From IMG/VR virus record IMGVR_UViG_3300015171_000003: a stretch of DNA of 64,000 nt; one strand, written 5' to 3'. Position numbers and translations under genes: made by a program. Positions 17,653-49,500 of this stretch are shown here, one piece after another (the stretch's first letter is position 1; every line of letters starts with the position of its first letter). The notes beneath the pieces were generated by a model. That model was given only the letters and a program-made list of their open reading frames with translations. It did no database searches and was not told the origin of the DNA. Origin of the DNA: a virus (lineage: Duplodnaviria > Heunggongvirae > Uroviricota > Caudoviricetes).

Positions 17653-18189
17653 TCATCTATATTGATTTTTCAATAATCTCCAACGAGTATTATCTATTTC
17701 AATCTTACCACTATCAATACCCTCGATTTTTTCAAAAAGTTCTTCTAAGTTATTATAAATATTTTCATGATTTATTGTGCCAAAAATCCAATAAGGAGTG
17801 CATTTCTTCCCACCTTCAACTACTAAAAATATTTGTTTCTTTGCGCGATTTGCTGTGAAAAATTCCTCGTAACTTCCACATGTATGAACTTTGGGATTTA
17901 AATAAAAAATAATAAAGTCACTTCTATCTACCAGATTTAAATCAAAAGATCTAAATTCCCTACATAAGATACTCAATTCATCATATCTCTCTTCTAAACG
18001 CATATTAGTTAGCTTAACATGAAACTCTGGAGATTCATCAAATGAAAAAAGAAAAGGCTTATTATATGGATCGAAACATGTTATACCAATCTTAGAAAAT
18101 CTATCTTTAACTAAATTTCTCCAAGATTCTCCATTTTGATATTCCATTGATCCAATAAGGTAACATGTTGTCCTATTTAATAAATTCAT
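17653..18189 (-). CDS. nucleoside 2-deoxyribosyltransferase-like protein
   Basis: CYLIGSMEY...W N-terminal motif and DRSDFIIFYL...TCGSYEEFFTANRAKKQIFLVV fit the NDT/Rcl family pattern. Confidence 0.5.
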   Translation of the reverse strand: MNLLNRTTCYLIGSMEYQNGESWRNLVKDRFSKIGITCFDPYNKPFLFSFDESPEFHVKLTNMRLEERYDELSILCREFRSFDLNLVDRSDFIIFYLNPKVHTCGSYEEFFTANRAKKQIFLVVEGGKKCTPYWIFGTINHENIYNNLEELFEKIEGIDSGKIEIDNTRWRLLKNQYR

Positions 18190-25434: not shown

Positions 25435-25941
25435 TTATTTAATAACATTTCTTTGTTTGATACACTGTCCTAATGTATAAAACCCTCCATGCTTTTTGAT
25501 ATGAGATACTTTATAAAACAATGCTCTATCTTTTCTAACAATAATAATATCATCTCCATTTATAATAACTGGAAATTTACATTCGTCATCAGTAAAAGAA
25601 TCTTGGCGCAATCTATTTACAAAATCTTCTTCAGTCTTAAATTCTTGAAAAGTTCTTTTCCATATAGGAGTGCTGTCTTCATTAACTTCTCTTAATAATT
25701 CAGATACTACATCTTTTAATTTAATTTTGGGAGACTCGGCTATATTTTGGTTATTAGAAACATAATATGTATATGTATCGCTTCCCATATTTTCCATAGA
25801 AGCACATTTTTCTGCTTCATCTCTTGTTGAAAATGAATTTATTATTCTTTTATAATCACCTTTATATTCAATAACTTTATATTTCTTGTCTAATGTGACT
25901 GCCTCAGAAATTTTATCTGGATTTATTTGTTTGTTATTCAT
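25435..25941 (-). CDS. hypothetical protein
   Basis: 168-aa ORF. Confidence 0.45.
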   Translation of the reverse strand: MNNKQINPDKISEAVTLDKKYKVIEYKGDYKRIINSFSTRDEAEKCASMENMGSDTYTYYVSNNQNIAESPKIKLKDVVSELLREVNEDSTPIWKRTFQEFKTEEDFVNRLRQDSFTDDECKFPVIINGDDIIIVRKDRALFYKVSHIKKHGGFYTLGQCIKQRNVIK

Positions 25942-26144
25942 GATCTATTAAATCCTTTAAGATAACCTTCAATAAAAATTTGTATTAGGCAATTTCTAGT
26001 TACGTTATAATTAATATCATTTTTTGGAAAGTACATGTTAAAATAATCATTTGCTTCTTTTTCTAATTCATTGCAATCAACTTTTTGAATTCCTTCCATA
26101 ACTTTAATATCAGTATTCACTTTCACCAATAACCTCATTAACAA
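25938..26144 (-). CDS. hypothetical protein
   Basis: 68-aa ORF. Confidence 0.3.
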   Translation of the reverse strand: MLMRLLVKVNTDIKVMEGIQKVDCNELEKEANDYFNMYFPKNDINYNVTRNCLIQIFIEGYLKGFNRS

Positions 26145-26643
26145 TATCCTTCATTGATATTTTGCCCTCGTGTGTTTCTTTGGGATTTAATTGAGCATCT
26201 ATTTCAACTAATGATTTTGCAAGCATCATTGTTACTTTTGAAGAAATAATACTTACAATACCTTTATAATCTTTATCTTTAAGTAATTTTATAGCATGTG
26301 TTAAATTAACTAAAAGCTCCCTTTCAATAGAAGAAAATCTTAAAACACCATATCCATTAATATATACTTCTGGATTCTTAGGATCTGAAGTTACTTTATT
26401 GATAACTGCTGTCGTATGATCTTCATTAGATTCATGTAATTCATCAATCATATCCTTCATTGATATTTTACCTTCATCTTTTTTATCCTTTTTTTGAGAA
26501 GGAGGAACTGAATCTAATCCTTTTTTATCTAAGACTATAACATGTGTATTTTTAGGAGCATCTGCATACACCTTTCCTTGTTTTTTCGCGTCGTGAGATT
26601 TGTTGTATGGATCGTAGATTACTTTATAATATTTTTTGCTCAT
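26110..26643 (-). CDS. hypothetical protein with an internal duplicated motif
   Basis: (D/H)EGKISMKD(M/I)(I/V)(D/N)E(L/V) occurs twice within the protein. Confidence 0.4.
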   Translation of the reverse strand: MSKKYYKVIYDPYNKSHDAKKQGKVYADAPKNTHVIVLDKKGLDSVPPSQKKDKKDEGKISMKDMIDELHESNEDHTTAVINKVTSDPKNPEVYINGYGVLRFSSIERELLVNLTHAIKLLKDKDYKGIVSIISSKVTMMLAKSLVEIDAQLNPKETHEGKISMKDIVNEVIGESEY

Positions 26644-26658
26644 GGGAATAAATATACA

Positions 26659-27045
26659 TTAACCATTTAATAATTGTTTTTTTGAAACAAAATTTTGTTT
26701 AGCTTCTTCTCTAATCCCCATTTTCTTTTTAATCATCTCTAAAGTGGCTTTTGGCGACATCCTACCAATTGGAGGACATATTAAATTATACTTCATACAA
26801 AATTCTTGTAATTCAATATAATCATTAGCATCATAATTTATAACTTCTGGCAATTTATCCTCTAAAGGATTTACCCCAGAGTGTTTCCTTTTAACCATCA
26901 TTGCATGAATAGGATCATTTTCAATTGGTTGAATCTGTCCTGTTAGTTGATTCATTAAACTTGATGCCCCTGCTCCATGTTTTAATGAATTAGTATTCAT
27001 AATATTCATTGAGGGATATTCATTATAATCGGTAGAATTCTGCAT
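26659..27045 (-). CDS. hypothetical protein
   Basis: 128-aa ORF. Confidence 0.4.
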   Translation of the reverse strand: MQNSTDYNEYPSMNIMNTNSLKHGAGASSLMNQLTGQIQPIENDPIHAMMVKRKHSGVNPLEDKLPEVINYDANDYIELQEFCMKYNLICPPIGRMSPKATLEMIKKKMGIREEAKQNFVSKKQLLNG

Positions 27046-27087
27046 GTTAATTGAAGTTTTGTGGGTTAATAGGTAGAATTGTGCGTG

Positions 27088-27774
27088 TTAAGTAATTTTT
27101 AAGAAAGTATCCAAATCATTTACTCTGTTTAGCCATCCATCCAAATACCTTACATCAGTACTATTATTATTTGCTAGTCTTTTATAAAAAGATCTTCTTA
27201 AATTATTATATTCCTTTGGAGAACTTGCTGATAAAAACTGTTTTGCCCTTGTTGGTCCGGCATTAATCTGACAATCTAAATAACAATACACCAATGGATC
27301 AGATAATGTTGAACATAATGATAATTTATAATTGTTATTCCAATAAATAGACATTGCTTGTTCTGCCGTTAAATTTTTAATATAATCAATTGCTTGATCC
27401 ATTGTAAATCCATATGTAGCTTTTAAAAAATCATAATTTCCACTAATATCAATTCCTCGCATAGTCCAACTACCATTATCATTTGGGTCATGTTCTACAA
27501 CTACATATTTTTCATCTCCCCAATGTCCTTTAGCATAGGAATTCTCATGTGGAAATACAAAGTTTGTTATAAAATTTTCAAATGAATCAGGCCAAGGATT
27601 TTTGGGAACTATTGGAACAATTGGTAAAGTAACTGTTTTTGGAGTTGTATTGGTACTCGGCGCAACATTTTGTATTGGTTGAATGGATGATACAGGAGCC
27701 TGTTGTATTTGTTGTACAACAGGTAATTGTTTCGGTGTTTCTTTTTTACTAAACCAAGAAAATATTTTCCACAT
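27088..27774 (-). CDS. GH108-family muramidase-like endolysin with a Pro/Gln-rich N-terminal region
   Basis: FPHENSYAKGHWGDEKYVVVEHDPNDNGSWTMRGI...LTAEQAMSIYWNNNYK...DCQINAGPTRAKQFL matches the GH108 pattern HEGGYxxDPxDxGGxTxxGIT...LTxxxAxxIYxxxYW...NxGxxxAxKxLQ. Confidence 0.55.
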   Translation of the reverse strand: MWKIFSWFSKKETPKQLPVVQQIQQAPVSSIQPIQNVAPSTNTTPKTVTLPIVPIVPKNPWPDSFENFITNFVFPHENSYAKGHWGDEKYVVVEHDPNDNGSWTMRGIDISGNYDFLKATYGFTMDQAIDYIKNLTAEQAMSIYWNNNYKLSLCSTLSDPLVYCYLDCQINAGPTRAKQFLSASSPKEYNNLRRSFYKRLANNNSTDVRYLDGWLNRVNDLDTFLKIT

Positions 27775-27776
27775 AA

Positions 27777-28175
27777 CTATTCAATATTTCCATTATCTAT
27801 GTGTTTTGGTCTAACTTGTACTGGTGCATATACACCAGTTAAATTAATATTTTCTGTAATATCCTCTTTTTTCTCTTGTACATAAGAATCTGAATGGGTA
27901 TTTGTAGTTTCTACATTATTTGCAGATTTCCATTCAACAAAACTTTGTCCAGTTATCATAGCACCTCCAACAGAACCTATTAATACAAACATTAAATTTG
28001 CAACAGTAACTATATAACTTGCTGAAACTGGAAATATACATACGAGACCAACAGATGATCCATATACAATTAAGCCAACAACCATTGTTAATATAGCAAT
28101 AGTTGCTTTTTTGGATTGTCCAATTGTTTTGTGTGAATTGTAAGCCATATTTTTATAATGATCCAGAAGCAACAA
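27777..28175 (-). CDS. holin-like 2-TM membrane protein
   Basis: 132 aa with two hydrophobic helices and a charged C-terminus; it sits between the endolysin-like and spanin-like genes and overlaps the spanin-like gene. Confidence 0.45.
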   Translation of the reverse strand: MLLLDHYKNMAYNSHKTIGQSKKATIAILTMVVGLIVYGSSVGLVCIFPVSASYIVTVANLMFVLIGSVGGAMITGQSFVEWKSANNVETTNTHSDSYVQEKKEDITENINLTGVYAPVQVRPKHIDNGNIE

Positions 28176-29004
28176 TAGATCCAGTTACAGGAGATGAACT
28201 AATAGAAGAAGTGGCAGAAGTTTTATTTTGAATACTGCCAATAATTTCTTTCTCAACAAATCCAGCGGCAGCAAAAGCTCCTGGTATAATAAATTTTATA
28301 CCACTCAAAACCACACCACCGACAGTTTTAAATCCACTTAAAATAGTGTTGAATATTGGAGAAATATTTAACCCACTTAATACTCTTATAGCAAAGAATA
28401 TAACAGTTCCTCCTACAGCAAACCAAATCGCAGACATAAATAATCTCTTAAATCCGTCAATGATTTCATAAATTCCAAACCATTTGTGTAAATTATCAAG
28501 TTCCTTTTCGGCAGTATCCGCTTTAGCTAATAGCACAGTTGTTTTATCTGTAAATTCTTTTTGTTGTTTATTTAAATCAACAACCATTTGATCTATTTGT
28601 TTTTGATTATTAGATATTTGCATATCCTTTTTTGATAGTAAAGCATCACCTATTTTTTGCTGAGCAACTAATTCAGATGTCAAATTATCAACTATGTCAG
28701 TGATTTCTAAAACTTGATTTTTGTCTGGCAATCCCACTATGGCTTGAATTCTATCATTAAGTTTCTTAATAGTTAAATCAATTTGAGATGGTTGTTTTCC
28801 TTTAAGTAAGGCCAAATTTTCCCCATAACAAAATTCAGAAACATTACTTTTAATATTATTGAATTGTTTTTGCAAAACTGTTAATTGGCTTGTAGTAATT
28901 TGTAATTTATCTTTTACATATTTTAGTTCCAAGTCATCGTCACATCCCGTTAGTGATAAACACAAAACTCCTACTAATATCCAAATAAACTTAAATTTTT
29001 TCAT
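28153..29004 (-). CDS. unimolecular-spanin-like outer-membrane lipoprotein (lipobox + coiled coil + C-terminal TM)
   Basis: Signal plus lipobox LSLTGC followed by DDD; a long coiled-coil middle; a C-terminal hydrophobic segment FMSAIWFAVGGTVIFFAI... Confidence 0.5.
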   Translation of the reverse strand: MKKFKFIWILVGVLCLSLTGCDDDLELKYVKDKLQITTSQLTVLQKQFNNIKSNVSEFCYGENLALLKGKQPSQIDLTIKKLNDRIQAIVGLPDKNQVLEITDIVDNLTSELVAQQKIGDALLSKKDMQISNNQKQIDQMVVDLNKQQKEFTDKTTVLLAKADTAEKELDNLHKWFGIYEIIDGFKRLFMSAIWFAVGGTVIFFAIRVLSGLNISPIFNTILSGFKTVGGVVLSGIKFIIPGAFAAAGFVEKEIIGSIQNKTSATSSISSSPVTGSIVASGSL

Positions 29005-29037
29005 AATAATGCCTTTATAGCATACATAGTAAGAAAT

Positions 29038-30288
29038 TTATAAAGAACTTAATTCTTGTTCTAATAAATGCAATATTTTTTCTGAAACTGTAGAATACCA
29101 AGCATCAGAGACAATATCTGTATTTGAATCGCCATTATGAAAAGCACCAATAGCATCACAATTAACCAAAGCTTTTAACAATTTAATAATTGATTCATTT
29201 ACTTTGACTTCATTTTTGATTTGAAGACCTTCATTAAGGTATATACGATATTTTTTAAGATCATTAGTTACAATTCTTTTAATTTCTGCTAAGTCAACTG
29301 TTGGGTTCATATTTTTATTATCAGTTAAATATCTATCTAATCCAGAATAATAGTGTGGATCTTGTTTAATTTTATTAATTGCTCTCGATTTGGCTTTTGT
29401 TTTTTCGGGAATTTCCATTCTTTCCATCTCATACTTAATACCCTGCAAAAGTTCGTCTTTATCTATTCCTGGAACATCAGTATCTTTATCATCAACCGTG
29501 TTATAATCGTATGAGATTACGTTTACAGGAGGAAAACTAGTTCTAGTATATGATACCTGTGGATCTGGTGTAGATGCTTGTCCTAGTGGTGCTGTAGCTC
29601 CACCAGCAGCACTTCCATATCCACCACCACCTAAGTTATATGCTAAATACTCTTTAATTGTCTCTTCTGGAACAGGATTTTTTGGATTTTGGGGAGTTAT
29701 TGGTTGTTCTGGCTCTGGAATTTTTGATTCTGGTTTTTCTTCTGGAGTTTCTTCTTTGTCGGGAACATCACTAACCTTCTTAAAATTAATCCATTGTTTT
29801 TTTGTTCCGGCTTCCCCAAATACACCTTTCTTAAATAAAAACTTTTTACCAAAAAATGTTCTATCTCCAATAAAATTGTCACCCATCCCCTTTTTGACAT
29901 AGGCTAATGTTAAATGTGGTTTATAGTCATTATACTTATTTTGATATGGTACTTTACTTCTTATTTCTTCATTCAATTTAGATAAAGCAGGACTATCAAT
30001 ATCTATTTTAATAACATCAAAATCATTATTATTATCAAATAAAGTAATTTCTTTTAGAACTATTTCTACTGGAAGAGTTTCTGAATAAATTTTCTTAACA
30101 GCATCTAAATATTTATTACTTTTAATTCCATAAAGAATTGTTATGTGAGATTCATATTCTTTTGGATCATCAATAACATCAGGGAAATCTGTGGCTAAAA
30201 TGTTATCAGGAATATTGTCATCAATATACTTCTTGAAAATGAAGTTGTTCTTAAAATAAATGGCGGAAATACAATCGTACATATCCAT
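29038..30288 (-). CDS. 2H phosphoesterase (LigT/CPDase-like) N-terminal domain fused to a large C-terminal region of unknown function
   Basis: Two HxT/Sx motifs (HITILYG and HLTLAYV) about 80 aa apart, followed by a Gly-rich linker and an unknown C-terminal region of about 200 aa. Confidence 0.55.
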   Translation of the reverse strand: MDMYDCISAIYFKNNFIFKKYIDDNIPDNILATDFPDVIDDPKEYESHITILYGIKSNKYLDAVKKIYSETLPVEIVLKEITLFDNNNDFDVIKIDIDSPALSKLNEEIRSKVPYQNKYNDYKPHLTLAYVKKGMGDNFIGDRTFFGKKFLFKKGVFGEAGTKKQWINFKKVSDVPDKEETPEEKPESKIPEPEQPITPQNPKNPVPEETIKEYLAYNLGGGGYGSAAGGATAPLGQASTPDPQVSYTRTSFPPVNVISYDYNTVDDKDTDVPGIDKDELLQGIKYEMERMEIPEKTKAKSRAINKIKQDPHYYSGLDRYLTDNKNMNPTVDLAEIKRIVTNDLKKYRIYLNEGLQIKNEVKVNESIIKLLKALVNCDAIGAFHNGDSNTDIVSDAWYSTVSEKILHLLEQELSSL

Positions 30289-30327
30289 ATAAATATATGA
30301 AACTATGCGATTCGATCAAAATGTAAC

Positions 30328-31191
30328 TCAAATTAATTTAGATAAAAGTTCTATATTTTTTGAAAATCTATCTGTTCTAGGCATTTTTGATTTTATATAT
30401 TCATCTTTTGCAACAGAAAAATTATTGTTTTTTATAGCAGATATGAAATTCTTGAATTTTAAAAACCCATTTGTTCCCAAATTATATATCAAATCAAAAC
30501 AAACTAATTGAACTTGGCTTGGCAATGAATCATAATTTGGTATTATTTTTTCTAATTCATTATGGAATTCTTTTTCATATTGTTTAAATACTTCGTACAT
30601 TCCTTTATCTGTTATTCCCTTATTCCCCAATTTAATTTGTTCAAAATCTTCTAACGAAATACCTGCCGCCAGAAAACATTTTTTTGCAAGTGGTTGTTCT
30701 AAATTAAAACCAATTCCTATTGTCCAATGACCTTTAGTATCTCTATATCTAAAATTTTTAGATCCTTCATTTTCTTTCTCATAAGAAATTAAATCATTTT
30801 GATAATTTATATTTTGTGTATTTGCTGGAGGAAAATCTAACAACTCTTGTAAAGATATTTTTTTATCAAATCCATTGGTTCCTCCATGATTATCCATAGA
30901 ATTTCTTGCTGCAACACACGCTTTAAATGATTTAGATTTATCAAACCATGCTTCACAAAAATCCTGTATAGTATCAAAATTACTAATGAGTTCATTTTTT
31001 CTATAAAAACCAATAGATCCACCACTAAATTCTATAAGTTTACAATTCTTTAGAATATTTTTTTCATTTTCATTTTTACTATTATCTATATCATCATCTA
31101 TAACTTCTTTTGGAAAAGGAATAATATGTGATACAGATTCGTTCAATTTTTTTCTATTTCGTATGTCTCGCAAAATATTAATTAATTTCAT
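30328..31191 (-). CDS. T4-type (GH24) lysozyme domain protein with an N-terminal extension
   Basis: FRYRDTKGHWTIGIGFNL matches T4 lysozyme KIYKDTEGYYTIGIGHLL, with an upstream Glu in YEKENEG. Confidence 0.6.
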   Translation of the reverse strand: MKLINILRDIRNRKKLNESVSHIIPFPKEVIDDDIDNSKNENEKNILKNCKLIEFSGGSIGFYRKNELISNFDTIQDFCEAWFDKSKSFKACVAARNSMDNHGGTNGFDKKISLQELLDFPPANTQNINYQNDLISYEKENEGSKNFRYRDTKGHWTIGIGFNLEQPLAKKCFLAAGISLEDFEQIKLGNKGITDKGMYEVFKQYEKEFHNELEKIIPNYDSLPSQVQLVCFDLIYNLGTNGFLKFKNFISAIKNNNFSVAKDEYIKSKMPRTDRFSKNIELLSKLI

Positions 31192-31225
31192 AATTTATAA
31201 GTATTAAATATGTACAAAAAAGGAA

Positions 31226-31657
31226 TCAATCAGGCAAGTGAATCAATTCTATATCCCATTCTTTCGCTAATTCCTTAACATATTCATTATCATAAACAGA
31301 AGTTGTACTTTCTTCTAAATAAACTATTTTTTGGATTCCAAAGTTTACTAATTGTTTGAAACAATCTAAACATGGAAATAATGTTGTAGCAGCTATGTAA
31401 CAATCTCCAGGAATACAATACGGCGCAGCAAATTTAATAGCATTAGATTCTGCGTGTATAACTTTGGGTCTTCTAGTTGATCGGCAACTATAGTCCAATT
31501 GTTTTTTTGAAGGTGCTCCATTAAATCCAGTTGATGCAATTGAATTATTTTTTCTTAAAATACAGGCACCAACTTTCATCCAAGGATCAATACTTTTTAT
31601 AGATGCTGTTTTTGCTATTTCTAATGCATATTCTTCCCAACTAATTTTATTTTCCAT
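31226..31657 (-). CDS. dCMP deaminase (CMP/dCMP deaminase zinc-binding family)
   Basis: HAESNAI and PCLDC zinc-binding motifs; 143 aa. Confidence 0.75.
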   Translation of the reverse strand: MENKISWEEYALEIAKTASIKSIDPWMKVGACILRKNNSIASTGFNGAPSKKQLDYSCRSTRRPKVIHAESNAIKFAAPYCIPGDCYIAATTLFPCLDCFKQLVNFGIQKIVYLEESTTSVYDNEYVKELAKEWDIELIHLPD

Positions 31658-31661
31658 AACA

Positions 31662-32306
31662 CTATTTTATATTAAAAATGGTTTTATAATATTCATATCT
31701 ATTATCATAAATATTTTTTTTCTTAATTTCTCTACAATTAATACAACACCCATTAATTTTTTCCTGTCGATTCCTCACCCACCCACAAGAATATTGCATT
31801 TCTTTTTTACAAATTGGACAATTTCTTAACCATATTAATTTACCATCAATAGTTTTTACTGTTAATTCTTTATAAAGAAAATTATTTTTTATTAATGTAT
31901 TTCTTATTTTATTTTTAACTTCTTGTGATAATTTTATATTTCTTTTTGGTGATATTTTTCCTAATAATGAATTTCTAATTTTTTCTCTACAAACCAAAGA
32001 TACAACATGTCCTTTTTTAGAACAACTTCTACATACAGAATTTTCTTTTATTGCTCTTCTTAATTTACATTTACTAGTATATATTTTTTCCGCTCCACAT
32101 TTGGGACATTTTCTAGACAGACTTTTCTTTTTAGATTTATTTATTAATTGACAACAACATACACACTTACTATTTTTTCTTATAGCAATATTAAGATTTT
32201 TTTCTGATTTATAATTTTGTTCTTTATTACATTCGGGACAATTTTTTGTCCACTTTTTTATATCTATTTTTGTTTTTTGTTCTAACAACTTCTTTGTTTC
32301 GTTCAT
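31662..32306 (-). CDS. Cys-rich multi-zinc-ribbon protein
   Basis: Multiple CxxC pairs (CPECN, CVCCC, CPKCG, CRSC, CPICK, CINC). Confidence 0.45.
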   Translation of the reverse strand: MNETKKLLEQKTKIDIKKWTKNCPECNKEQNYKSEKNLNIAIRKNSKCVCCCQLINKSKKKSLSRKCPKCGAEKIYTSKCKLRRAIKENSVCRSCSKKGHVVSLVCREKIRNSLLGKISPKRNIKLSQEVKNKIRNTLIKNNFLYKELTVKTIDGKLIWLRNCPICKKEMQYSCGWVRNRQEKINGCCINCREIKKKNIYDNRYEYYKTIFNIK

Positions 32307-32324
32307 GATAAAAAATGTGATAAA

Positions 32325-32528
32325 TTATTTATATATTTTAGTAAATTTTTTTGAAGGCGACATATAATCATTTACTAATCCATTAATAAAATCAGATGTT
32401 TCTTCATTTGTACAATAATGTAAATATTGAGGAATTAATCTATCAATTTGTATTTTTAAATATTTAGATTTTTCTTTGTTTGATGAAGAATCAAATATAT
32501 CAATATTTTCCTGTGCGTCAGATGTCAT
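32325..32528 (-). CDS. hypothetical protein
   Basis: 67-aa ORF. Confidence 0.3.
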   Translation of the reverse strand: MTSDAQENIDIFDSSSNKEKSKYLKIQIDRLIPQYLHYCTNEETSDFINGLVNDYMSPSKKFTKIYK

Positions 32529-32534
32529 AACATT

Positions 32535-32999
32535 TTACTTTTCATAGTACTTCAATTTCTTCGCAAGATCAATTAATTCTTCAAGTGAATCAACTTGTTT
32601 GATATTATAGTTTTCACAAACAATATCAACATTTCCTTTTTTCCAATATCCCTTTGGACAACAAACAATAATATTGAAATCATGACAATGAATTCCCAAT
32701 TCGAGTAAAGAAATTGGTGCCTTTGATTCTGGTGAGAAATAAAGTAGAATCCAATGACACTTATTCATTGCATTTAATTCCCAATTTACTTGTTCATTAA
32801 AATAAGAATCTTTTATATCTTCAACACAATCTTTCCAATCTAATCTTCTTGGATTTAATATAATACAATCTTCATCTTTAAGACCATTTGCTACTTTAGT
32901 TTGCCACTAAACAGCTTTTCCTTGATCTATTGATCCAGCAAGAAATAAAGAAATTTTATCTAATTTTGGAAGTTTATTAGGAGCGTATACAATTTTCAT
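32535..32999 (-). pseudogene. nucleoside 2-deoxyribosyltransferase-like gene interrupted by one in-frame TAG (codon 31, at 32907-32909). It is either a pseudogene or a read-through/recoded gene.
   Basis: Hand translation from ATG 32999 gives MKIVYAPNKLPKLDKISLFLAGSIDQGKAV*WQTKVANGLKDEDCIILNPRRLDW...NAMNKCHW, which runs in frame into track ORF 32535..32768. LFLAGS and SLLELG are NDT-family motifs. Confidence 0.45.
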
Positions 33000-33007
33000 A
33001 GTGAATA

Positions 33008-33295
33008 TTATATTTTAAATATTGCATTAAATTTCTTTATAACTTCATTAACCATATCAATCTGTTCTTTATTAAAATGTTGAGTATATACTTTTTGACA
33101 AAGTTCATTTGATTTGGAATAATGCAAATAAAATTTATATCCTTTTGTTGTATGTTCTATTTTAGCTCCATCTCTAATAGCAGAAATAACATCTTCAGGA
33201 TGAATTCCATCTCTAGATTCCCATGTATCCAAACCTTCTTTTCTATCTTGTGGTCCAAATTCCGACATTCTTCGTTCGCATGTTTGTTTATTCAT
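33008..33295 (-). CDS. hypothetical protein
   Basis: 95-aa ORF. Confidence 0.4.
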   Translation of the reverse strand: MNKQTCERRMSEFGPQDRKEGLDTWESRDGIHPEDVISAIRDGAKIEHTTKGYKFYLHYSKSNELCQKVYTQHFNKEQIDMVNEVIKKFNAIFKI

Positions 33296-33621
33296 AAATT
33301 TAATTCTAATTGATTAACATCTACAGATTCTTTATTATCTTTATCAACACATTCTTTAATAAAGTTTGAAATATTAATAGCATTTTCTTCTGAAATAATC
33401 ATATAATCATTCCACACTTCTTTATTCCAAAGAATTTGCCAGCACCATCTTAATCTTTCTTTTAATGAGCATTGAATACTATGTGGATCTCGTTTAAAAA
33501 TTGATACATCATATGTTCTATAAATGTCCTTTGAGATTTTTAATATTCCACAATCACAATCACAAGAAATATATAATTCTTCCTTCTTCTTTAATAACTG
33601 ATAAAATTGATTCATTGTCAT
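33292..33621 (-). CDS. hypothetical protein
   Basis: 109-aa ORF. Confidence 0.4.
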   Translation of the reverse strand: MTMNQFYQLLKKKEELYISCDCDCGILKISKDIYRTYDVSIFKRDPHSIQCSLKERLRWCWQILWNKEVWNDYMIISEENAINISNFIKECVDKDNKESVDVNQLELNL

Positions 33622-33762
33622 ATTATTTTTCCGTTTTAGCAGAAGAATATTTTAAATCCTTCTTTAATGTTTCCTTTGTTTGCAAAATCCAAATTGTTTC
33701 TACTTGTCCCACCCAAGTTTTTGCTTTTATAGGAGATAATCCATAATATGTGTTATTTTTCA

Positions 33763-33951
33763 TTATGATTTATTTTTAACTGTTTTTTTACTTTCTTCCA
33801 ACATTTCCCATGTTATATATGGAATTTTGCCATCTCTAAGAACATCTATTAAAGATTCTAAACAATTCAACATTCCTTGTTCGTAAGAATCCTTACATAA
33901 TTTTTTTAATTTTTCACCAAAAGTATCTTTTAATTCATCGGGAATTTCCAT
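33763..33951 (-). CDS. hypothetical protein
   Basis: 62-aa ORF. Confidence 0.35.
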   Translation of the reverse strand: MEIPDELKDTFGEKLKKLCKDSYEQGMLNCLESLIDVLRDGKIPYITWEMLEESKKTVKNKS

Positions 33952-33957
33952 ATTAAA

Positions 33958-34347
33958 TTATTTATTCAAAATTTTTGTAAAATCTGGTTTTCTATATCCA
34001 ATGCCCTTTAAAACTTTTCCAAATTCATTATAAATTGGATTTCCATCCTCATCTAACTTTGAAAGATTAGAAGCATGTACTTCTTCAAGACCCGCCTGTT
34101 TATGTTTATGAAGTCCTAATGATAAATATGCACCATCTAGAACATATTGAATATCAGTTAATGCATCAAGTGCTTCTACAACATCTCCTGTTTCTAATGC
34201 TTCTTTTAATTCATTTAGTTCTTCTTGAATCAAATCAATTCTCAATTTATTGATAGCAGGATTAGATAAATCCGGCTCATCTTTGATTGGCTGTCTATAA
34301 ATTGTGTGGAACTCCTGTACCATTTCTAATGATGTTTTTTTATTCAT
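33958..34347 (-). CDS. MazG-like nucleotide pyrophosphohydrolase
   Basis: EELNELKEALETGDVVEALDALTDIQYVLDGAY matches the all-alpha NTP-PPase EExxE...EAxDxxxDxxY pattern. Confidence 0.6.
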   Translation of the reverse strand: MNKKTSLEMVQEFHTIYRQPIKDEPDLSNPAINKLRIDLIQEELNELKEALETGDVVEALDALTDIQYVLDGAYLSLGLHKHKQAGLEEVHASNLSKLDEDGNPIYNEFGKVLKGIGYRKPDFTKILNK

Positions 34348-34348
34348 T

Positions 34349-34549
34349 TTATTTTCTTATTTTTTTTATTTTTTCTAAATCAATTTGTGTTTGAATTTCG
34401 AATGCTTTATCCATCTTATATTCTCTTCCATCTAAATCAACAAATTTATGGTCACTATCATTATACCCCCATCCAGAAGAAATTAAATATCTATAAATAT
34501 TCATTGATGTATCAATTGTTGGTAGTTCTTCTTTAGTCATGCAAACCAA
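34349..34549 (-). CDS. hypothetical protein
   Basis: 66-aa ORF. Confidence 0.3.
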   Translation of the reverse strand: MVCMTKEELPTIDTSMNIYRYLISSGWGYNDSDHKFVDLDGREYKMDKAFEIQTQIDLEKIKKIRK

Positions 34550-34916
34550 CTTTCTTTTGATTTCTTATATTTTCTAAATTAATTTGTGGGCGAATTACTT
34601 TCAAAGTTTTTGTATAATCTTCGAGAAATTTAACATAGTCTTGCTGTGACCTAGCATTCATGAGTTGTTGACATAACTTCAGTAGATGCTGCTCATGATG
34701 TGCGGCTTTCTTAGGAATGGTATCAGTCCGATCTTCAGAAAATAAATATCCCTTTTCTTCCAATGCTAATGACAAATCTTCAGCAACTTTAATTGCATCA
34801 CCATAAGCAACAGTCAAAAGTCCATCGGTACAAACTTTTATAATAATCTGACTGGAGATATTTTGTATAAATTCTGTTTTATTCATGAACAAATATAATA
34901 TCAAATATAATCCCAA
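34533..34916 (-). CDS. hypothetical protein
   Basis: 127-aa ORF with higher GC than its neighbours. Confidence 0.35.
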   Translation of the reverse strand: MGLYLILYLFMNKTEFIQNISSQIIIKVCTDGLLTVAYGDAIKVAEDLSLALEEKGYLFSEDRTDTIPKKAAHHEQHLLKLCQQLMNARSQQDYVKFLEDYTKTLKVIRPQINLENIRNQKKVGLHD

Positions 34917-34924
34917 TGGTAAAT

Positions 34925-35458
34925 TTATTTTAACTTAATTCTCAAAACAAAATCATTTGATGAATATGTCACATTATTATTTTCTCCATAAACTTCTTTT
35001 GAAGTTCCCAAATATTCAAATCCACACTTGACATAAAAATCTTTGGCGTTATCTGTGAAAACATAGAGATATTCATAATCAAACAATCCTTTTAAAATAT
35101 AAATTGTTTCTTGTAATATTTCTTTACCAATTCCCATTTTTTGATATTTTTCAATAATACCAAACCAACTAAGCCACAATGTATAATTGTCGCCTATTTT
35201 CCATAAATACCAACCAGTGATACCAATAGGAATTAATGGCTTTGTATTATACTCATAAACAATTCTTTGCTCCCAAGATACAGCATATTTTGGATCTATT
35301 GAATAACAAGGACATGTGTCTTTTTTAGTACTCATAGGAATTAATCCTATATATTTTGCACAAGATAACACAAATTGCCCTTGATCTCCAAAATCAATTC
35401 CTCTAATAATAGGATCATATTGATTAAACTCTGTGGGTTGTATTAAAAGATATTCCAT
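34925..35458 (-). CDS. GNAT-family N-acetyltransferase
   Basis: Motif A QKMGIGKEIL. Confidence 0.6.
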   Translation of the reverse strand: MEYLLIQPTEFNQYDPIIRGIDFGDQGQFVLSCAKYIGLIPMSTKKDTCPCYSIDPKYAVSWEQRIVYEYNTKPLIPIGITGWYLWKIGDNYTLWLSWFGIIEKYQKMGIGKEILQETIYILKGLFDYEYLYVFTDNAKDFYVKCGFEYLGTSKEVYGENNNVTYSSNDFVLRIKLK

Positions 35459-35462
35459 ATTT

Positions 35463-35966
35463 TTAGTTTTTATTTAAATCGTATTCCATAATAATATTGT
35501 TTTCTCCATTATATTTTGCAACATCAATTTGATTCCACCCATGTTTTTTGTGATATGAAAAAGCATCTGTTGTGTCTAAATAAACTTTTTCAAATCCCAA
35601 AGATTTTACATAATCCAATCTTACTTTAGTTAATTTTTCTCCAAGTTTATTTCCTCTATATTTTGGTTCTACCCAAAGAAGAAAAAACCATGGAGAATAA
35701 TTAGGAACTTTATTCCAAGTTAAAGAAAACATTCCTGTTCCAATAGGATCTTTTTCTGTTTCTGTTCTAAGACAGAAAATTCTTTCACTAGTTTTTGTTG
35801 GAATAAAATTTTCAATTTCTTTATCAGCATCTTCTTTAGAATAATCCCACCTTATTTGTATAAGATTGGATAAATATGGAATATCTTTTTCTGTTGCTTT
35901 TGTTATAATAAAATCCATATTAATCCAATAAAGCTTTTCCAATAATAGGAGCAACACTATAAACAC
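35463..35966 (-). CDS. GNAT-family N-acetyltransferase
   Basis: Motif A YRGNKLGEKL; tandem with the previous GNAT. Confidence 0.6.
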   Translation of the reverse strand: MFIVLLLLLEKLYWINMDFIITKATEKDIPYLSNLIQIRWDYSKEDADKEIENFIPTKTSERIFCLRTETEKDPIGTGMFSLTWNKVPNYSPWFFLLWVEPKYRGNKLGEKLTKVRLDYVKSLGFEKVYLDTTDAFSYHKKHGWNQIDVAKYNGENNIIMEYDLNKN

Positions 35967-36873
35967 TCATAAATGAATGTCTACAATCAGAATATATCAT
36001 CTGAGCATATGTATTAGGATGTGTATTAGTCATTGCAATTTTATTGATTACATCATCTTTGTGTCCTGCTAACTTTTCATACCAACCTTTAGTGAGAACA
36101 CCATGACTCATTACAGCATAAATTTTATTAGCACCTTCTCTTTTATAAATTTCAGCAGCTTTAATCAAAGAAGATCCAGACCGCAACATGTCGTCATAAA
36201 TCACTACAATCTTATCCTTAACATCAGCATTAACTCCTGTGATGTCAGTACTAGATCCTGAATTACGTCGCTTATAACAGAAAGCAGACTCTATCTTATA
36301 ATCTTCTGAATAGGATCTAGATAAGTATTCAACATTCTTTGCTCTACCCACATCAGTTGTTGCAATAACATATTCTTTAGTTCCGGCAATTTCATTGCAC
36401 ATTTGTTGAATTAATGATGTTGTATTGATTTGTGAAGTGTATACACCTCCTTCAAAGAATTCTGTAATAACTGGGGTATGTAAATCCAAGAAATAAAATT
36501 TATTACCATAAGCTGCTCTTGGAATATTAGAAAGCATTGTTGCTCTAATTTTAGCAGCAATAATTTCACCATTCTTAGTTGCGCGTTCCATTGTGGCATA
36601 TCCATAATAAGGAATAACAATATTTAATCTCTTTGCTCCCATTGTAACTAATGTAGAACAAATACTAATCAATTCAACAATATCATCATTTGTTTGGGTC
36701 CCAGCTATTACACAACAAACTTCTCCATCTACTTGTTCTAAAATTCTAAGATAAATTTCTTGGTCTGGAAATTGTTCTCTTTCAATTTTCCCACATTTAA
36801 ATGAATTGGGATATTCCTTTAGAATCTCATCTTTGAGATAATCATATTTTTCAGTTGAAAATAATAATTTCAT
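35920..36873 (-). CDS. prs: ribose-phosphate pyrophosphokinase (PRPP synthetase) family protein; a PRPP synthetase and an ADP-ribose pyrophosphokinase (Adps-type) homolog cannot be told apart by eye
   Basis: C-terminal PRPP-binding region VIYDDMLRSGSSL...KIYAVMSHGV; 317 aa. Confidence 0.7.
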   Translation of the reverse strand: MKLLFSTEKYDYLKDEILKEYPNSFKCGKIEREQFPDQEIYLRILEQVDGEVCCVIAGTQTNDDIVELISICSTLVTMGAKRLNIVIPYYGYATMERATKNGEIIAAKIRATMLSNIPRAAYGNKFYFLDLHTPVITEFFEGGVYTSQINTTSLIQQMCNEIAGTKEYVIATTDVGRAKNVEYLSRSYSEDYKIESAFCYKRRNSGSSTDITGVNADVKDKIVVIYDDMLRSGSSLIKAAEIYKREGANKIYAVMSHGVLTKGWYEKLAGHKDDVINKIAMTNTHPNTYAQMIYSDCRHSFMSVYSVAPIIGKALLD

Positions 36874-36901
36874 AATTTTTTTCTATCTCTTCGTGCATCA
36901 A

Positions 36902-37108
36902 TCATAATTCATTTTCATTGATTGTTTTTTGCATAAAATATTTTTCAATAATATCTAAAATACAAGAGTCTTCATATACATGAATTGTTATTCCATTAAA
37001 TAAAAGATCAGATGTTTTATACTCAGAATCTTTTGCAATTTGTTTTACTCGAATAAATGCATTAAAAATATCTTCGCCTGTATTAGAATCATATAGTTCA
37101 TCACTCAT
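36902..37108 (-). CDS. hypothetical protein
   Basis: 68-aa ORF. Confidence 0.3.
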   Translation of the reverse strand: MSDELYDSNTGEDIFNAFIRVKQIAKDSEYKTSDLLFNGITIHVYEDSCILDIIEKYFMQKTINENEL

Positions 37109-37716
37109 AAATTTATATTATATTCTTTGATTTCACAATTTTGCGGAGTTTTCATTTTATCAAATTCAGATGGTGTTAATTTATTAATGTACATATCAAT
37201 TACATTCATTAAAAATCCATGAGTAACTAGTAAAATTGGACCGGAAATTTTTGTAGATAAATCGAAATTTCTCAAGTAATTAAAAAATGTTGTGACTCTT
37301 TGATAACAGTCCACTCCATTCTCACCATTTTTATACTTGAAATAGAATTTACTTCCATATTCTTTCAATTCATTAACATATTGTGGGAAATCAATTGAGT
37401 TATAAAAATAATAACAAGTATGTTCAATTAACAATGGATTAACTTCGAAATAATTAATATTAATATCAGCTTTTTTTAAATATAGTTCTAACAAATCAAA
37501 TGTCTGTACAGTTCTTAAATATGGTGAACAAAAAACATTTATATGGCTTATATCTTCACCAAAATTCTCAATTATTTTTGGAGCTTGTGTATGAAAATAT
37601 TCAATTCCTTCTACAGATAAAGGAACATTTTCATCTTTCATTGTGTCATAAACATGTTTATTATGTCCATTTGCAATACTTCTTGCGTGCCTTAATGTAA
37701 AAATAGGGACAATCAT
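37105..37716 (-). CDS. histidine phosphatase superfamily (PGAM-like) protein
   Basis: RHG-type motif LRHARSIANG near the N-terminus and a distal LVTHGFLM. Confidence 0.55.
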   Translation of the reverse strand: MIVPIFTLRHARSIANGHNKHVYDTMKDENVPLSVEGIEYFHTQAPKIIENFGEDISHINVFCSPYLRTVQTFDLLELYLKKADININYFEVNPLLIEHTCYYFYNSIDFPQYVNELKEYGSKFYFKYKNGENGVDCYQRVTTFFNYLRNFDLSTKISGPILLVTHGFLMNVIDMYINKLTPSEFDKMKTPQNCEIKEYNINL

Positions 37717-37982
37717 AAAACTGATTTCAAATATGGAGAATCCTTATATTCATCCAAACTCATTCCAAGTAACCATGGATGTACAACATTTAAAAAAGCT
37801 GGGTTACTAACAATCATTCTTGAAAATTCAAATCCACTAGGAATATAACTTCTACCAAAAAATTTATGTTCAAATAAATAATAAAATACATCTACATCCG
37901 TATCATAATCAGTCCAATATATCTTTCCTTGAATAACAGCAACCAATTTTCCTCTAAACAATTTCCTAAAAATATTTTTCAT
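37713..37982 (-). CDS. hypothetical protein
   Basis: 89-aa ORF. Confidence 0.3.
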   Translation of the reverse strand: MKNIFRKLFRGKLVAVIQGKIYWTDYDTDVDVFYYLFEHKFFGRSYIPSGFEFSRMIVSNPAFLNVVHPWLLGMSLDEYKDSPYLKSVL

Positions 37983-38707
37983 ATTAACCTTTTTAATGAA
38001 ATATTACAATAATCTTCATTTTTGTCAATCCCAATATAGTTTCTTCCCAAATTTTTTGCAGCTAAACATGTAGTGCCACTACCCATACAATTATCTAATA
38101 TCAATGCATTTTCATTAGAATATGATTTAATTAAATATTCCATTAATTCAATTGGTTTTTGGGATGGATGCAATCGTTTATCAGAATTATTATTAATATT
38201 ATTAATTTTTAATATAGAAGTAGGAAATCTTTCAGTAGACCCGCCTTCATTATACACAGAATTCACTTCGCCATATGTATTACTTTTATCAGTTCTTTTA
38301 CATGGATGTACTGGAGTATGTCCAGAAGTTTTTTGAGGATTAAATACTCCAAATTTTTTATAAAATACTAATATAGATTCGTGTTTTCTTAATGGTTGTT
38401 TGTTAGCATTTAAAAATCCCGTGGAATAATTCTTTTCCCATATTAAATCATATCTGAAATTCTTAATATTAGAAATAATTAATTTTGTTCTGAATGGTTC
38501 AATCGCAGTCAATATAACATTTCCTTTTAATTTAATTATTCTGTTGTAACTTTCCCACAATAAATCTAATGGAATCATAACATCCCATTCTTGTCTGGCA
38601 GTTGTTCCATATGGTAAATCACATAAAATTAAATCAATTGATTCATCTGGTATTTGTTTCATTAATTCTAAACAATCTCCGTGATATAATTTGTTAATTT
38701 CTAACAT
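37979..38707 (-). CDS. beta-class N6-adenine/N4-cytosine DNA methyltransferase (orphan)
   Basis: Motif IV DLPY near the N-terminus and motif I DNCMGSGTT near the C-terminus; no adjacent restriction endonuclease. Confidence 0.8.
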   Translation of the reverse strand: MLEINKLYHGDCLELMKQIPDESIDLILCDLPYGTTARQEWDVMIPLDLLWESYNRIIKLKGNVILTAIEPFRTKLIISNIKNFRYDLIWEKNYSTGFLNANKQPLRKHESILVFYKKFGVFNPQKTSGHTPVHPCKRTDKSNTYGEVNSVYNEGGSTERFPTSILKINNINNNSDKRLHPSQKPIELMEYLIKSYSNENALILDNCMGSGTTCLAAKNLGRNYIGIDKNEDYCNISLKRLI

Positions 38708-38708
38708 A

Positions 38709-39137
38709 TCAATGAACTGTATTCATTCTACGAATTACTTTATCAGCAATTTCTTTTGTTAATCCTTCTCTAATTTCAGTTTTAACTACAATATCTTCCA
38801 TCCAATCATCACTTATATCATCAATAGCAACATATCTGTCTGGTGCATACATCTTGATCCATGCATAGATCTCTACACCACGATCAACCCCCATCCACTT
38901 TCCATTATATTCTTTTCTCAAATCGGGTATACATCCAAATATAGTTCCTGTGAATCCATTAATCTTCAAAAGTTCTCTAAGTGCATCTACCCCATGACTA
39001 ATTCTCCAACTAGAAGAAACAACAACCATAGAATTTGTTTCATGTACAATTCTATTAAGCTGTTCTATACATTCTGGAAGCCAATATCCTTTAGGTGTAT
39101 TTAAAACCCCGTCAAAATCTAAAAATATAATATTCAT
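38709..39137 (-). CDS. HAD-like phosphatase (PNK-phosphatase / 5'-nucleotidase-like)
   Basis: Motif I IFLDFDGVLNT. Confidence 0.5.
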   Translation of the reverse strand: MNIIFLDFDGVLNTPKGYWLPECIEQLNRIVHETNSMVVVSSSWRISHGVDALRELLKINGFTGTIFGCIPDLRKEYNGKWMGVDRGVEIYAWIKMYAPDRYVAIDDISDDWMEDIVVKTEIREGLTKEIADKVIRRMNTVH

Positions 39138-39149
39138 ATGATATTTTAT

Positions 39150-39569
39150 CTATTCACAATCTTTAAATTTTTCTCTTAATTCCAAGTATTTTTGATATTC
39201 ATCACTTTTCTTTTTTTCTTTAATTTTCTCATCCATTTCTTCTGCTAAAGCATCTTCTTTCTTTTTAAGATCCAGTTTATTTTTAACAATATCGTTAACA
39301 TTTCTCCATAAATTTGACAAATCAAAAAGATGACAATCATTAACATAGTCTCCAATATTACTGAAAATTATTTCTCCATAACAAAGAATTGTAAATTGCA
39401 AATCTTGTGTAGATTTATTTTTTAAAATTTCATTTTCAAATTCAAATTGAGAAATTTTTTCAACAAGAGAATTAAATTCATCTGTTTGAAATATTTCTCC
39501 AAATGAGATGCTTATATTACTTCCATCATAATAGCCATCGGGTCTATATACAAAAACAGTGTATTTCAT
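39150..39569 (-). CDS. hypothetical protein, tandem paralog of 39584..39910
   Basis: Both start MKYT(V/L)F(V/Y)YR and share the GEIFQ(T/S) motif. Confidence 0.4.
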   Translation of the reverse strand: MKYTVFVYRPDGYYDGSNISISFGEIFQTDEFNSLVEKISQFEFENEILKNKSTQDLQFTILCYGEIIFSNIGDYVNDCHLFDLSNLWRNVNDIVKNKLDLKKKEDALAEEMDEKIKEKKKSDEYQKYLELREKFKDCE

Positions 39570-39583
39570 AAAATAATGATATA

Positions 39584-39910
39584 TTAATTGTTATAATAAT
39601 TTTTATAATTTTTAAATACCTCATAATTAATTCTATCATATAAATTTTTTAAAGTCAAAAAATATTCATCAGAAAGATCTTCTTTAATATAATCACCATC
39701 AATCTCAGTACAAACTATTTGGGCATCAAACATTATTGTAATATCAGATACCGCAATTTCTGGTCCACTATTCATATTTTCACATTTAATCTCAATAATC
39801 TTATTTGTAAATTCTTCAAAATTTAAACTCTGAAAAATTTCTCCTTCGGAATTACTGGATTTATCTTCACAAGAACAATTCTTTCTATAATAAAATAATG
39901 TGTATTTCAT
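39584..39910 (-). CDS. hypothetical protein, tandem paralog of 39150..39569
   Basis: See 39150..39569. Confidence 0.4.
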   Translation of the reverse strand: MKYTLFYYRKNCSCEDKSSNSEGEIFQSLNFEEFTNKIIEIKCENMNSGPEIAVSDITIMFDAQIVCTEIDGDYIKEDLSDEYFLTLKNLYDRINYEVFKNYKNYYNN

Positions 39911-39918
39911 ATTTTTAA

Positions 39919-40887
39919 TTATTTTACAATAATTTTTGACATATTTTTAAACAACATATTAAGCAAAACATGGTGTTCCTTAACAATTAATTCTTCACCC
40001 GCACCATTGCGACAAAGATCATCAAAATCAAACCATTTAACTTCGGAGATGTCATCTGATGCTTGAGGTCTACCAAATAACAATTTACAATAGAAAAATG
40101 CAGTTTTAATACAATCTTCTCCATCTTTAGGGTATCTCCAGTCCAAAATTTTAGTACTTCCAATATAAACAGGATCACTAATTTCACATAATCCAGTTTC
40201 CTCCATCACTTCTCTTTTAGCATCATCTTCCAAAGAATTACTTCTAGGGTCACTAAAACCTCCAATAAATCTATGTTTATCTTCCTTTGGTTTCTTACCA
40301 AGAAGAATCTTAGTAAAGTCTTCATTAAAGATTGCTACATCTACAGTTTGATAAGCAGTAGGATATCTACTCTGAGTAGAATAAATCACGCCTGCCCTGA
40401 ATTCTGGCGAAGCAATGGTCTTTGCAGATATAGTCTTGCGCATCTCAGTTCCAGAAACAAAAACATCGCTTTCTAATTCAATTGTTTTATTTTTTCCATT
40501 ATAATATTGAATAAAACTATCTCTACTTCCATATAAAGTTATTGTTTGGCCGGGATTTAAATGTTTTGAAATTTGATCATCTAAATTTTTACTCCAATCA
40601 GAATCATCTTTGACATCATTAATATAATGAATCTCCAAATCATCTTTGGGAAATTCTTCGATTAACATTTGTTTGCGAGCATTAAAATCTAATGGATTCT
40701 TTTTTGTGTTTCTTACTTCACTCAATCCCAAAAAAATAATAACTCTTTTGTGATTATTAATTACAGTTTGAATTAATTTTCTATGAGCGTCATGTAATTT
40801 ATGCACTTGCATTCTACAAACCAATCCACCAACAACAGTATTTTCTTTTACTTCTTCCTTAACCTTCAATACATTTTTAGTAGTCAT
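39919..40887 (-). CDS. nadM: bifunctional NMN adenylyltransferase / Nudix hydrolase (NadM-Nudix, NatV-like)
   Basis: N-terminal nucleotidyltransferase motif RMQVHKLH (compare NadM RFQPFHKGH) and C-terminal Nudix box GGFSDPRSNSLEDDAKREVMEETGL. Confidence 0.65.
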   Translation of the reverse strand: MTTKNVLKVKEEVKENTVVGGLVCRMQVHKLHDAHRKLIQTVINNHKRVIIFLGLSEVRNTKKNPLDFNARKQMLIEEFPKDDLEIHYINDVKDDSDWSKNLDDQISKHLNPGQTITLYGSRDSFIQYYNGKNKTIELESDVFVSGTEMRKTISAKTIASPEFRAGVIYSTQSRYPTAYQTVDVAIFNEDFTKILLGKKPKEDKHRFIGGFSDPRSNSLEDDAKREVMEETGLCEISDPVYIGSTKILDWRYPKDGEDCIKTAFFYCKLLFGRPQASDDISEVKWFDFDDLCRNGAGEELIVKEHHVLLNMLFKNMSKIIVK

Positions 40888-48409: not shown

Positions 48410-48742
48410 TTACTTTCTATATTCTACGATTACTTTTTCATGTGGGTAAACTCGATACCAACCTTCTTCATTCCAATCAGAATCGTCCCATGAACTATAA
48501 GATCCATCAATCTTATAATATTCTAATTTATCATCATATTTAACTTCAATAACTTTAGACATATGTTCTCCACCACCTTCACACCCACCGTCTTCTTCTA
48601 CAAGAGTAATATTCAATCCTTCATATTCAATAGATTTATCTAAATCTAACTTATAAATTAATTCCCAATATGAGTTGTAGTCATCCCCGTATCTACTAGG
48701 AATAGTTTTATCATTTAAAATTTCTAGCACTTTGTTTGACAT
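48410..48742 (-). CDS. hypothetical protein, tandem paralog of 48108..48407
   Basis: See 48108..48407. Confidence 0.4.
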   Translation of the reverse strand: MSNKVLEILNDKTIPSRYGDDYNSYWELIYKLDLDKSIEYEGLNITLVEEDGGCEGGGEHMSKVIEVKYDDKLEYYKIDGSYSSWDDSDWNEEGWYRVYPHEKVIVEYRK

Positions 48743-49500
48743 AATTTTTCTTTCAAGTTTAATTTTTTAACATTGGTTATTTCTTTTATATTTTCAACAA
48801 TGAATCTCGGAAACCACCCAAAACTCATAGAAGTAACTAAATGTTTTAATGCTTTATGAAATGCAGCCTTTTCATTTGCTACAAAATCATTTGGAATTAA
48901 ATATCTTTCCAAGGCAACAACAAAAATTTCTTCTCTACACAATTTAATCTTATCCTCAAATGACAAATCTGTAAACATTTTATAACTACAATTTGCTTTA
49001 TTTAAATCTGGTTTAATTCTTTCATATAATGGGCGATCATAATGTGCCACTAAAATATGTAATTCATCATGTTCATATTCTCTTTTAACATTATCCTTAA
49101 AAAATTCATCATTATTTTTATTAAGATTAACTTTCTTCTTTCCATGAACCAATTTCCATTCATTCACTAACATTTTATAAAGAACTTCATCTGCCTGACA
49201 ACCTTTGTTCTTTAAAAAAATAATGTCGTAAATGGTCTTATCCCACTTAACATCCCAAAAACTATGGCTCAACTTAATCGTGTATAAAAAATTTGGATCA
49301 ACAAATTTAAAATCTATATTATTATCAAGAATATATTGAAAAGAATTTAACCAATATTTTTCAACTTTTCCTTTTAAATAATTAAATCCAAAATATTCTA
49401 AAATATTTTTTTCAAGAGGAGATTGAATAATGTCAAAATCTTTTGGCTCTCTACTATCAGGAAACCAATGATGCAATGCTGTAGAACCAATTATTAACAT
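48724..49500 (-). CDS. LicD-like nucleotidyltransferase-fold phosphotransferase (candidate)
   Basis: IIGSTALHHWFPDSREPKDFDII resembles the LicD GTLLGAVRHxGFIPWDDDIDI motif; the gene sits inside the glycan island. Confidence 0.4.
   Translation of the reverse strand: MLIIGSTALHHWFPDSREPKDFDIIQSPLEKNILEYFGFNYLKGKVEKYWLNSFQYILDNNIDFKFVDPNFLYTIKLSHSFWDVKWDKTIYDIIFLKNKGCQADEVLYKMLVNEWKLVHGKKKVNLNKNNDEFFKDNVKREYEHDELHILVAHYDRPLYERIKPDLNKANCSYKMFTDLSFEDKIKLCREEIFVVALERYLIPNDFVANEKAAFHKALKHLVTSMSFGWFPRFIVENIKEITNVKKLNLKEKLCQTKC

Follow-up and report, generated by a model that had tools for sequence, protein, structure and literature searches.

The window, as the whole analysed stretch of 64,000 nucleotides of phage DNA is called here, has a GC content of 27.6% and carries on its minus strand a nucleoside 2-deoxyribosyltransferase-like (NDT-like) gene of 465 bp that is interrupted by one in-frame TAG (Table 1). 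Translation from the ATG at 32999–32997 gives 30 sense codons (MKIVYAPNKLPKLDKISLFLAGSIDQGKAV) ahead of the TAG at 32909–32907, after which the same frame is open for a further 123 codons (WQTKV...KKLKYYEK), with neither stop nor frameshift, and ends with TAA at 32537–32535. In the mechanical ORF list this locus is represented by a 30-aa ORF (32907..32999) and a 77-aa ORF (32535..32768), the second of which starts from the ATG at 32768 (codon 78); no in-frame ATG, GTG or TTG precedes this codon in the post-stop part. The conceptual joined product comprises 154 aa, with X at the position of the stop, while the 30-codon N-terminal fragment is the sole product expected of the interrupted gene under standard decoding. 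The genome from which the window derives is probably large, much larger than 64 kb.

Table 1. Positions of the interrupted gene, its distant paralogue and the genes related to ADP-ribose, NAD and RNA repair in and next to the window
Feature	Position	Strand	Details or basis
Whole interrupted PF15891 (nucleoside 2-deoxyribosyltransferase-like) gene	32535..32999	-	30 codons, TAG, 123 codons, TAA
N-terminal fragment, 30 codons, with the beta1-loop motif FLAGSIDQGKAV	32910..32999	-	translation; homologue alignment
In-frame TAG, codon 31, immediately 5' of the invariant Trp-Gln	32907..32909	-	sequence
Post-stop part, 123 codons and TAA, with motifs WQ, NPRR, NWEL, SLLELG and GNVD	32535..32906	-	translation
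Distant PF15891-like paralogue, 178 aa, intact	17653..18189	-	sub-threshold PF15891 match
Thg1-like tRNA-His guanylyltransferase	18191-18985	-	
Protein with WGR and PARP catalytic domains	19918-21162	-	
2',5'-RNA ligase	29038-30288		
HAD domain of 'Swiss Army Knife' RNA repair proteins	38709-39137		
NADAR	52350-52880	-	
SIR2 gene just beyond the window	L074 1359-2018		

The joined product matches the Pfam family PF15891 (Nuc_deoxyri_tr2) with 92.6 bits (gathering score 30; E 2.4e-26), where residues 16–118 cover positions 2–105 of the 105-position profile, and it also matches phrog_30579 (E 3.2e-37) and the structure PDB 4MCJ (E 2.2e-19). A protein search with this product retrieved 2526 homologues. 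The motifs FLAGSI-x-GKA-x-x-WQ, NPRR, NWEL, SLLELG and GNVD are collinear with those of the homologues P0001–P0120 and of 4MCJ, and the tryptophan and glutamine directly after the stop are invariant in all 120 of the best 120 of the 2526 homologues. The 30 upstream codons, on whose likeness to a family N-terminus the initial annotation had made its reading depend, align to P0001 and other homologues, and to 4MCJ from residue 25 onward. As one full-length PF15891 match extends across both pieces, the stop lies inside a single domain and the two ORFs are not a chance juxtaposition, so the earlier view that an in-frame TAG splits a conserved NDT-like domain is upheld by the translation and by the profile match. 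The assignment to PF05014 made at the same time is replaced, since PF15891 is the sole Pfam family reported at E ≤ 0.01; a few homologues have an additional precomputed PF05014 match.

With the members of PF15891, including 4MCJ, the product shares the full profile and the family motifs, and its gene lies near NAMPT and PRPP synthetase genes, as do those of many members. It differs from them in that the TAG at codon 31 breaks the frame, so that no uninterrupted ORF spans the whole domain and the full protein would not be made under the standard code. The locus is thus a predicted PF15891 member by descent and, as written, a putative pseudogene. 4MCJ is the only solved representative of the family and was deposited as 'uncharacterized protein'; the biochemical function of the family is unproven. 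The second NDT-like gene, reported earlier as intact, is indeed an intact ORF of 178 aa, but 'NDT-like' is an imprecise name for it, as its PF15891 match (27.7 bits) falls under the gathering score of 30 and covers only positions 3–64 of the 105-position profile. It has essentially no similarity to the interrupted gene (BLASTP E 0.04), and is by this comparison too divergent to count as a functional back-up.

The best of the 2526 homologues (P0001; 156 aa, from the ENA metagenome assemblies GROS21) has 78% identity over 100% of the query, and its locus is syntenic with the window, with the genes in the same order: NAMPT, NUDIX, HAD, His_Phos, PRPP synthetase, MazG-like, NDT-like, dCMP deaminase, lysozyme-like and 2',5'-RNA ligase. 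In the window, a 214-aa Cys-rich protein with repeated CxxC (31662-32306, minus strand; ending in TAG) is encoded between the NDT-like and 67-aa genes on one side and the dCMP deaminase gene on the other. This protein has only a faint rubredoxin-like match, and as no counterpart was noticed at the same position of the closest relative, its gene may be a lineage-specific insertion.

In the DNA alignment to the closest relative (L008), GCA GTA GAT TGG stands against GCT GTT TAG TGG of the window, and the relative therefore encodes aspartate at codon 31. Further alleles were collected with degenerate DNA patterns that leave codon 31 free, a procedure that avoids gene calls, which hide stop-bearing alleles. 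The pattern scan of IMG/VR, pooled with loci fetched earlier, gave 29 matches (GAT 21, GAC 4, GAG 3 and TAG 1), where the lone TAG belongs to a Logan contig of this same genome (L013). None of 41 loci in JGI and other metagenome contigs has a stop at codon 31 (GAT 27, GAC 11, AAT 2 and AAC 1), and none of the best 120 of the 2526 protein homologues has one at the site, the most frequent residues being D (71), N (22), K (9), E (8), R (4) and P (3). Among the approximately 190 relatives examined (69 DNA loci and 120 proteins), the TAG at codon 31 thus appears as a singleton confined to this genome. Alignment of this codon with a conserved Gln, Trp or Tyr, a check proposed in the initial annotation, is not seen, as the site is variable and polar (D/N/K/E/R/P), and residue conservation was for this reason dropped as an uninformative test of TAG being read as Gln. 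Since the site is polar and tolerant, the ancestral residue cannot separate a stop from a codon read as an amino acid. Pyrrolysine at the TAG was set aside, the window containing no tRNA or pyl gene signal and the ancestral residue being most likely aspartate.

Nei-Gojobori estimates were made for window genes against the closest relative, and dN/dS of the interrupted gene is 0.13, while the ten neighbours range from 0.11 to 0.36 (NAMPT 0.11, PRPP synthetase 0.15, eight others 0.16-0.36). Its pN/pS falls from 0.35 upstream of the stop to 0.20 downstream, and with 78% amino-acid identity the gene is among the three best-conserved of the syntenic block. Apart from substitutions, it differs from L008 by two in-frame 3-nt indels only, at a dS of about 1.1. 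The low dN/dS and the exclusively in-frame indels point to strong purifying selection during nearly all of this divergence. By these estimates, the stop either is young relative to this divergence or does not function as a stop; the selection signature alone does not distinguish a young pseudogene from a stop that is suppressed or erroneous.

An artefact of sequencing or consensus calling, with a sense codon such as GAG or GAT as the true codon in place of TAG, is an unlikely explanation, in whose favour are the otherwise intact and constrained gene, the fact that one G-to-T change from GAG would be enough, and the single metagenomic source, the phage having been found in one run only (ERR4837132). 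A 52.7-kb Logan contig of this run, found through the dCMP deaminase encoded three genes downstream, is 100% identical to the window at 25226-37657 (12.4 kb), and a second Logan contig of the run covers the upper end of the window and reaches about 4 kb beyond it. Against an artefact, the window and the 52.7-kb contig agree base for base over the 12.4 kb with the TAG included, and the gene calls of the contig give the same 30-aa and 77-aa pieces, although the two assemblies may share the same reads. In addition, the TAG lies outside any homopolymer or low-complexity tract, and no second disruption of a conserved gene was noticed across the window. Additional sources of the same phage were not retrieved by megablast of 4 kb against GenBank phages (no near-identical genome), by the exact 25-base pattern around the stop in IMG/VR, or by the clade-specific degenerate pattern in JGI metagenomes and GTDB genomes. 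Exact-protein look-ups of five window proteins (the 95-aa, 77-aa, 30-aa and 181-aa ORFs and the PRPP synthetase) returned no record, and contigs were obtained in this way only for the dCMP deaminase and for a single gene close to the end of the window, both from ERR4837132. A helicase search for the closest cultured phage found only matches of 24-29% identity, and a PRPP synthetase search of IMG/VR found no match.

Decoding of the TAG as an amino acid by a suppressor tRNA(CUA), encoded by the phage outside the window or supplied by the host, would yield full-length enzyme, possibly not before expression of the suppressor, and would represent incipient or partial TAG recoding in a low-GC jumbo phage; this reading is judged improbable. 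In a simple non-overlapping ORF set, 122 genes cover 89.7% of the window and end in TAA (73), TGA (38) or TAG (11), so that TAG is the rarest terminator (9% of genes). Low GC and rare TAG have been proposed as the precursor state of TAG recoding (Borges et al., bioRxiv 10.1101/2021.08.26.457843), which agrees with suppression, as do the otherwise perfect frame with its low dN/dS, the many residues tolerated at the codon-31 site, and the occurrence of PF15891 members in TAG-recoded Lak phages. The same study applies a coding-density gain above 10% as the recoding criterion for contigs of 5-100 kb, and reports in-frame stops in 26-71% of genes of recoded clades. When TAG is taken as sense (code 15), a simple ORF-based caller raises the coding density of the window from 89.7% to 90.0%, a gain of 0.3 points, where the extra coverage consists mostly of short tails and the other merges are tails or fusions of separate genes. 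Enrichment of in-frame TAG in other genes, which the initial annotation had suggested looking for, is not apparent in the 64-kb window, where one homology-supported case stands in about 122 genes.

TAG also acts as a genuine terminator in the window, as seven of the 11 TAG-terminated genes have another stop no more than 10 codons on, and for three of the 11 the end at TAG is borne out by a homologue or a domain limit. Gene 27777..28148 (123 aa) can be aligned over its full length with a 120-aa orthologue, the DUF7275 domain of 48724..49500 stops six residues short of the TAG, and the HAD gene lying in frame past the TAG of 39150..39569 has its own ATG, likewise in the relative. The earlier impression that the window otherwise gives no reason to assume global reassignment is therefore confirmed by the 0.3-point gain, the verified TAG terminators and the single supported in-frame TAG. 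A second in-frame TAG, at 52166, was rejected as evidence of recoding, as its methylase match has an E-value of only 0.091 and the upstream 60 aa have no methylase similarity. Directly after this TAG, which ends ORF 52166-52348, a read-through tail of 24 codons (SCLRNFIGIELEQKYYDIILQRLK; 52091-52165, minus strand) is similar to the very C-terminal end of N6_N4 DNA methylases (PF01555 positions 204-220 of 221, E 0.091), and may at best be what remains of a methyltransferase gene that was deleted.

ARAGORN detected no tRNA in the 64-kb window, in the 4 kb past its upper end (L074) or in the loci of the relative, and the Rfam scan gave no RNA match at gathering thresholds. The lack of a tRNA in these 68 kb weighs against suppression, although the 64 kb and about 4 kb searched belong to a probably much larger genome. 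Suppression is further opposed by the absence of the stop from the nearest relative and from all other homologues examined. The code-15 phages (Lak, crAss-like and other clades, where TAG is translated as Gln) have in common with the window a low GC content, a probably large genome, TAG as the rarest terminator and an in-frame TAG, and the Lak phages among them carry homologues of the interrupted gene. The window differs from these phages in its one in-frame TAG in about 122 genes, the missing density gain, the verified use of TAG as terminator and the lack of a detected suppressor tRNA. The affected gene is moreover of the metabolic or early type (nucleotide metabolism), whereas recoding is concentrated in the late genes for structure and lysis (Borges et al., bioRxiv 10.1101/2021.08.26.457843). 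A narrower version, again of incipient TAG recoding, in which the phage would encode a tRNA(CUA) outside the window and the single amber codon would hold back the NAD/nucleotide-salvage enzyme until this suppressor is expressed, is more doubtful still; if true, it would be an early step on the route to code 15 proposed for low-GC phages, and a suppressor tRNA in the complete genome would turn the case into an instructive instance of how stop-codon recoding begins.

Programmed read-through of a leaky stop, yielding a short and a long product in fixed ratio as in Q-beta A1 or MuLV gag-pol, has in its favour that the same frame continues past the stop, but is very improbable, as the stop is not conserved in any relative examined (DNA loci and best 120 of 2526 proteins), lies within one globular domain and not between domains, would give a meaningless 30-residue product, is associated with no stable downstream structure (the 141 nt around and after the TAG fold no better than shuffles, MFE z = -0.54), and is followed by T, as are five of the 11 terminating TAGs, UAG-U being reportedly an efficient termination context in E. 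coli (Poole, Brown and Tate 1995).

A nonsense lesion is also found elsewhere in the family. The 77-aa fragment was used in a protein search of limited sensitivity, which returned only four distant fragments and missed P0001 itself, and one of these is an 88-aa fragment (P0121) on contigs L075 and L076 (Logan runs SRR28154525 and SRR28154517). At 2770-3267 (plus strand) of these contigs, which come from several sequencing runs, a PF15891 gene is split by a change of TGG to TAG at a conserved Trp (NPRRDDWDSSW to NPRRDD*DSSW, where the asterisk is the stop). The operon comprises an NrtR-like NUDIX regulator, PRPP synthetase, a 138-aa gene, PF15891, NAMPT, Macro, a 127-aa gene and ADP-ribosylglycohydrolase, and has as its neighbour a gene encoding a Por_Secre_tail domain; both contigs, which are unrelated to the window, look bacterial. 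This independent allele indicates that nonsense lesions arise in PF15891 without recoding. On an ENA marine metagenome contig (L057, from about 3511-3548 onward on the minus strand), a PF15891 homologue loses the family similarity about 20 residues past GKAVDWQT and then runs into stops; it represents a further decayed copy or else a chimera of the assembly.

The TAG at codon 31 is most likely a genuine, recent and lineage-specific nonsense allele, which would make the locus a young pseudogene of an accessory enzyme. Of the four explanations offered in the initial annotation, the recent nonsense mutation is the one favoured, as the stop is unique, past constraint was strong and no other lesion is present, while read-through and localised reassignment found no support. 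A polar or acidic sense codon would have changed to TAG; Asp (GAT/GAC) is the most likely ancestor, with Glu (GAG) as a possible intermediate. Translation would then end after 30 residues, past the FLAGSIDQGKAV loop, and leave the WQ, NPRR, NWEL, SLLELG and GNVD elements untranslated. No functional enzyme would be made, because the remaining 123 codons offer no in-frame start before codon 78. The result would be a very young pseudogene, or a loss-of-function variant dominating the sampled population, and the loss is probably tolerated because the function is an accessory one in nucleotide/NAD salvage and not a core phage function. We infer three points: the TAG is a true allele and no consensus error, it is unsuppressed, and the loss is tolerated.

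The locus has the two features expected of a pseudogene, a premature stop within a conserved domain and intact orthologues in relatives. It also agrees with amber mutants and young pseudogenes of accessory phage and bacterial genes, which have the same single premature stop in an otherwise intact conserved ORF, absent from orthologues, and from which nothing material distinguishes it. Several observations count against the nonsense allele: decay is limited to the single stop, which would fit a suppressed or erroneous stop equally well; GAT to TAG takes two substitutions, and the searches found no closer relative with an intermediate; the site is variable and polar, so that a residue inserted by a suppressor would probably be tolerated; the two agreeing assemblies may go back to shared reads; and the tRNA search covered 64 kb and about 4 kb of a probably much larger genome. 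For annotation, code 11 should be used for the window, with ORFs 32907..32999 and 32535..32768 merged as one disrupted PF15891 locus. For a metagenomic phage, one amber codon in an accessory gene calls for no more than a routine pseudogene flag; the practical value of the case is negative evidence, against a switch of translation table.

A PF15891 gene lies within a few kb of NAMPT in 12 of the 69 fetched loci (L001, L005, L006, L022-L024, L029, L048, L062, L071, L073 and L075). In the window (35920-42289 and 32535-32999, both minus strand), in the closest relative and in L075, PF15891 is close to PRPP synthetase and NUDIX/NrtR genes, and L075 additionally carries Macro and ADP-ribosylglycohydrolase genes. 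This gene neighbourhood suggests that the uncharacterised PF15891 family acts in NAD or nicotinamide-nucleotide salvage, a testable role to which its repeated occurrence near NAMPT and PRPP synthetase genes, in bacteria as well as in phages, also points. The window also contains a concentration of ADP-ribose, NAD and tRNA-repair-type genes that is unusual for a phage (Table 1).

A 431-aa TnpB-like gene (23170-24465, plus strand), which contains OrfB_IS605 and Cas12f1-like TNB domains, lies on the strand opposite to its neighbours. After it come about 400 nt that contain no called gene (24466-24870), and then a 61-aa mechanical ORF (24871-25056). No RNA was found in this gene-poor stretch by Rfam at gathering thresholds; it could hold the guide (omega/re) RNA of TnpB. 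The TnpB-like gene appears to be an element of the IS200/IS605 type inserted in the phage genome.
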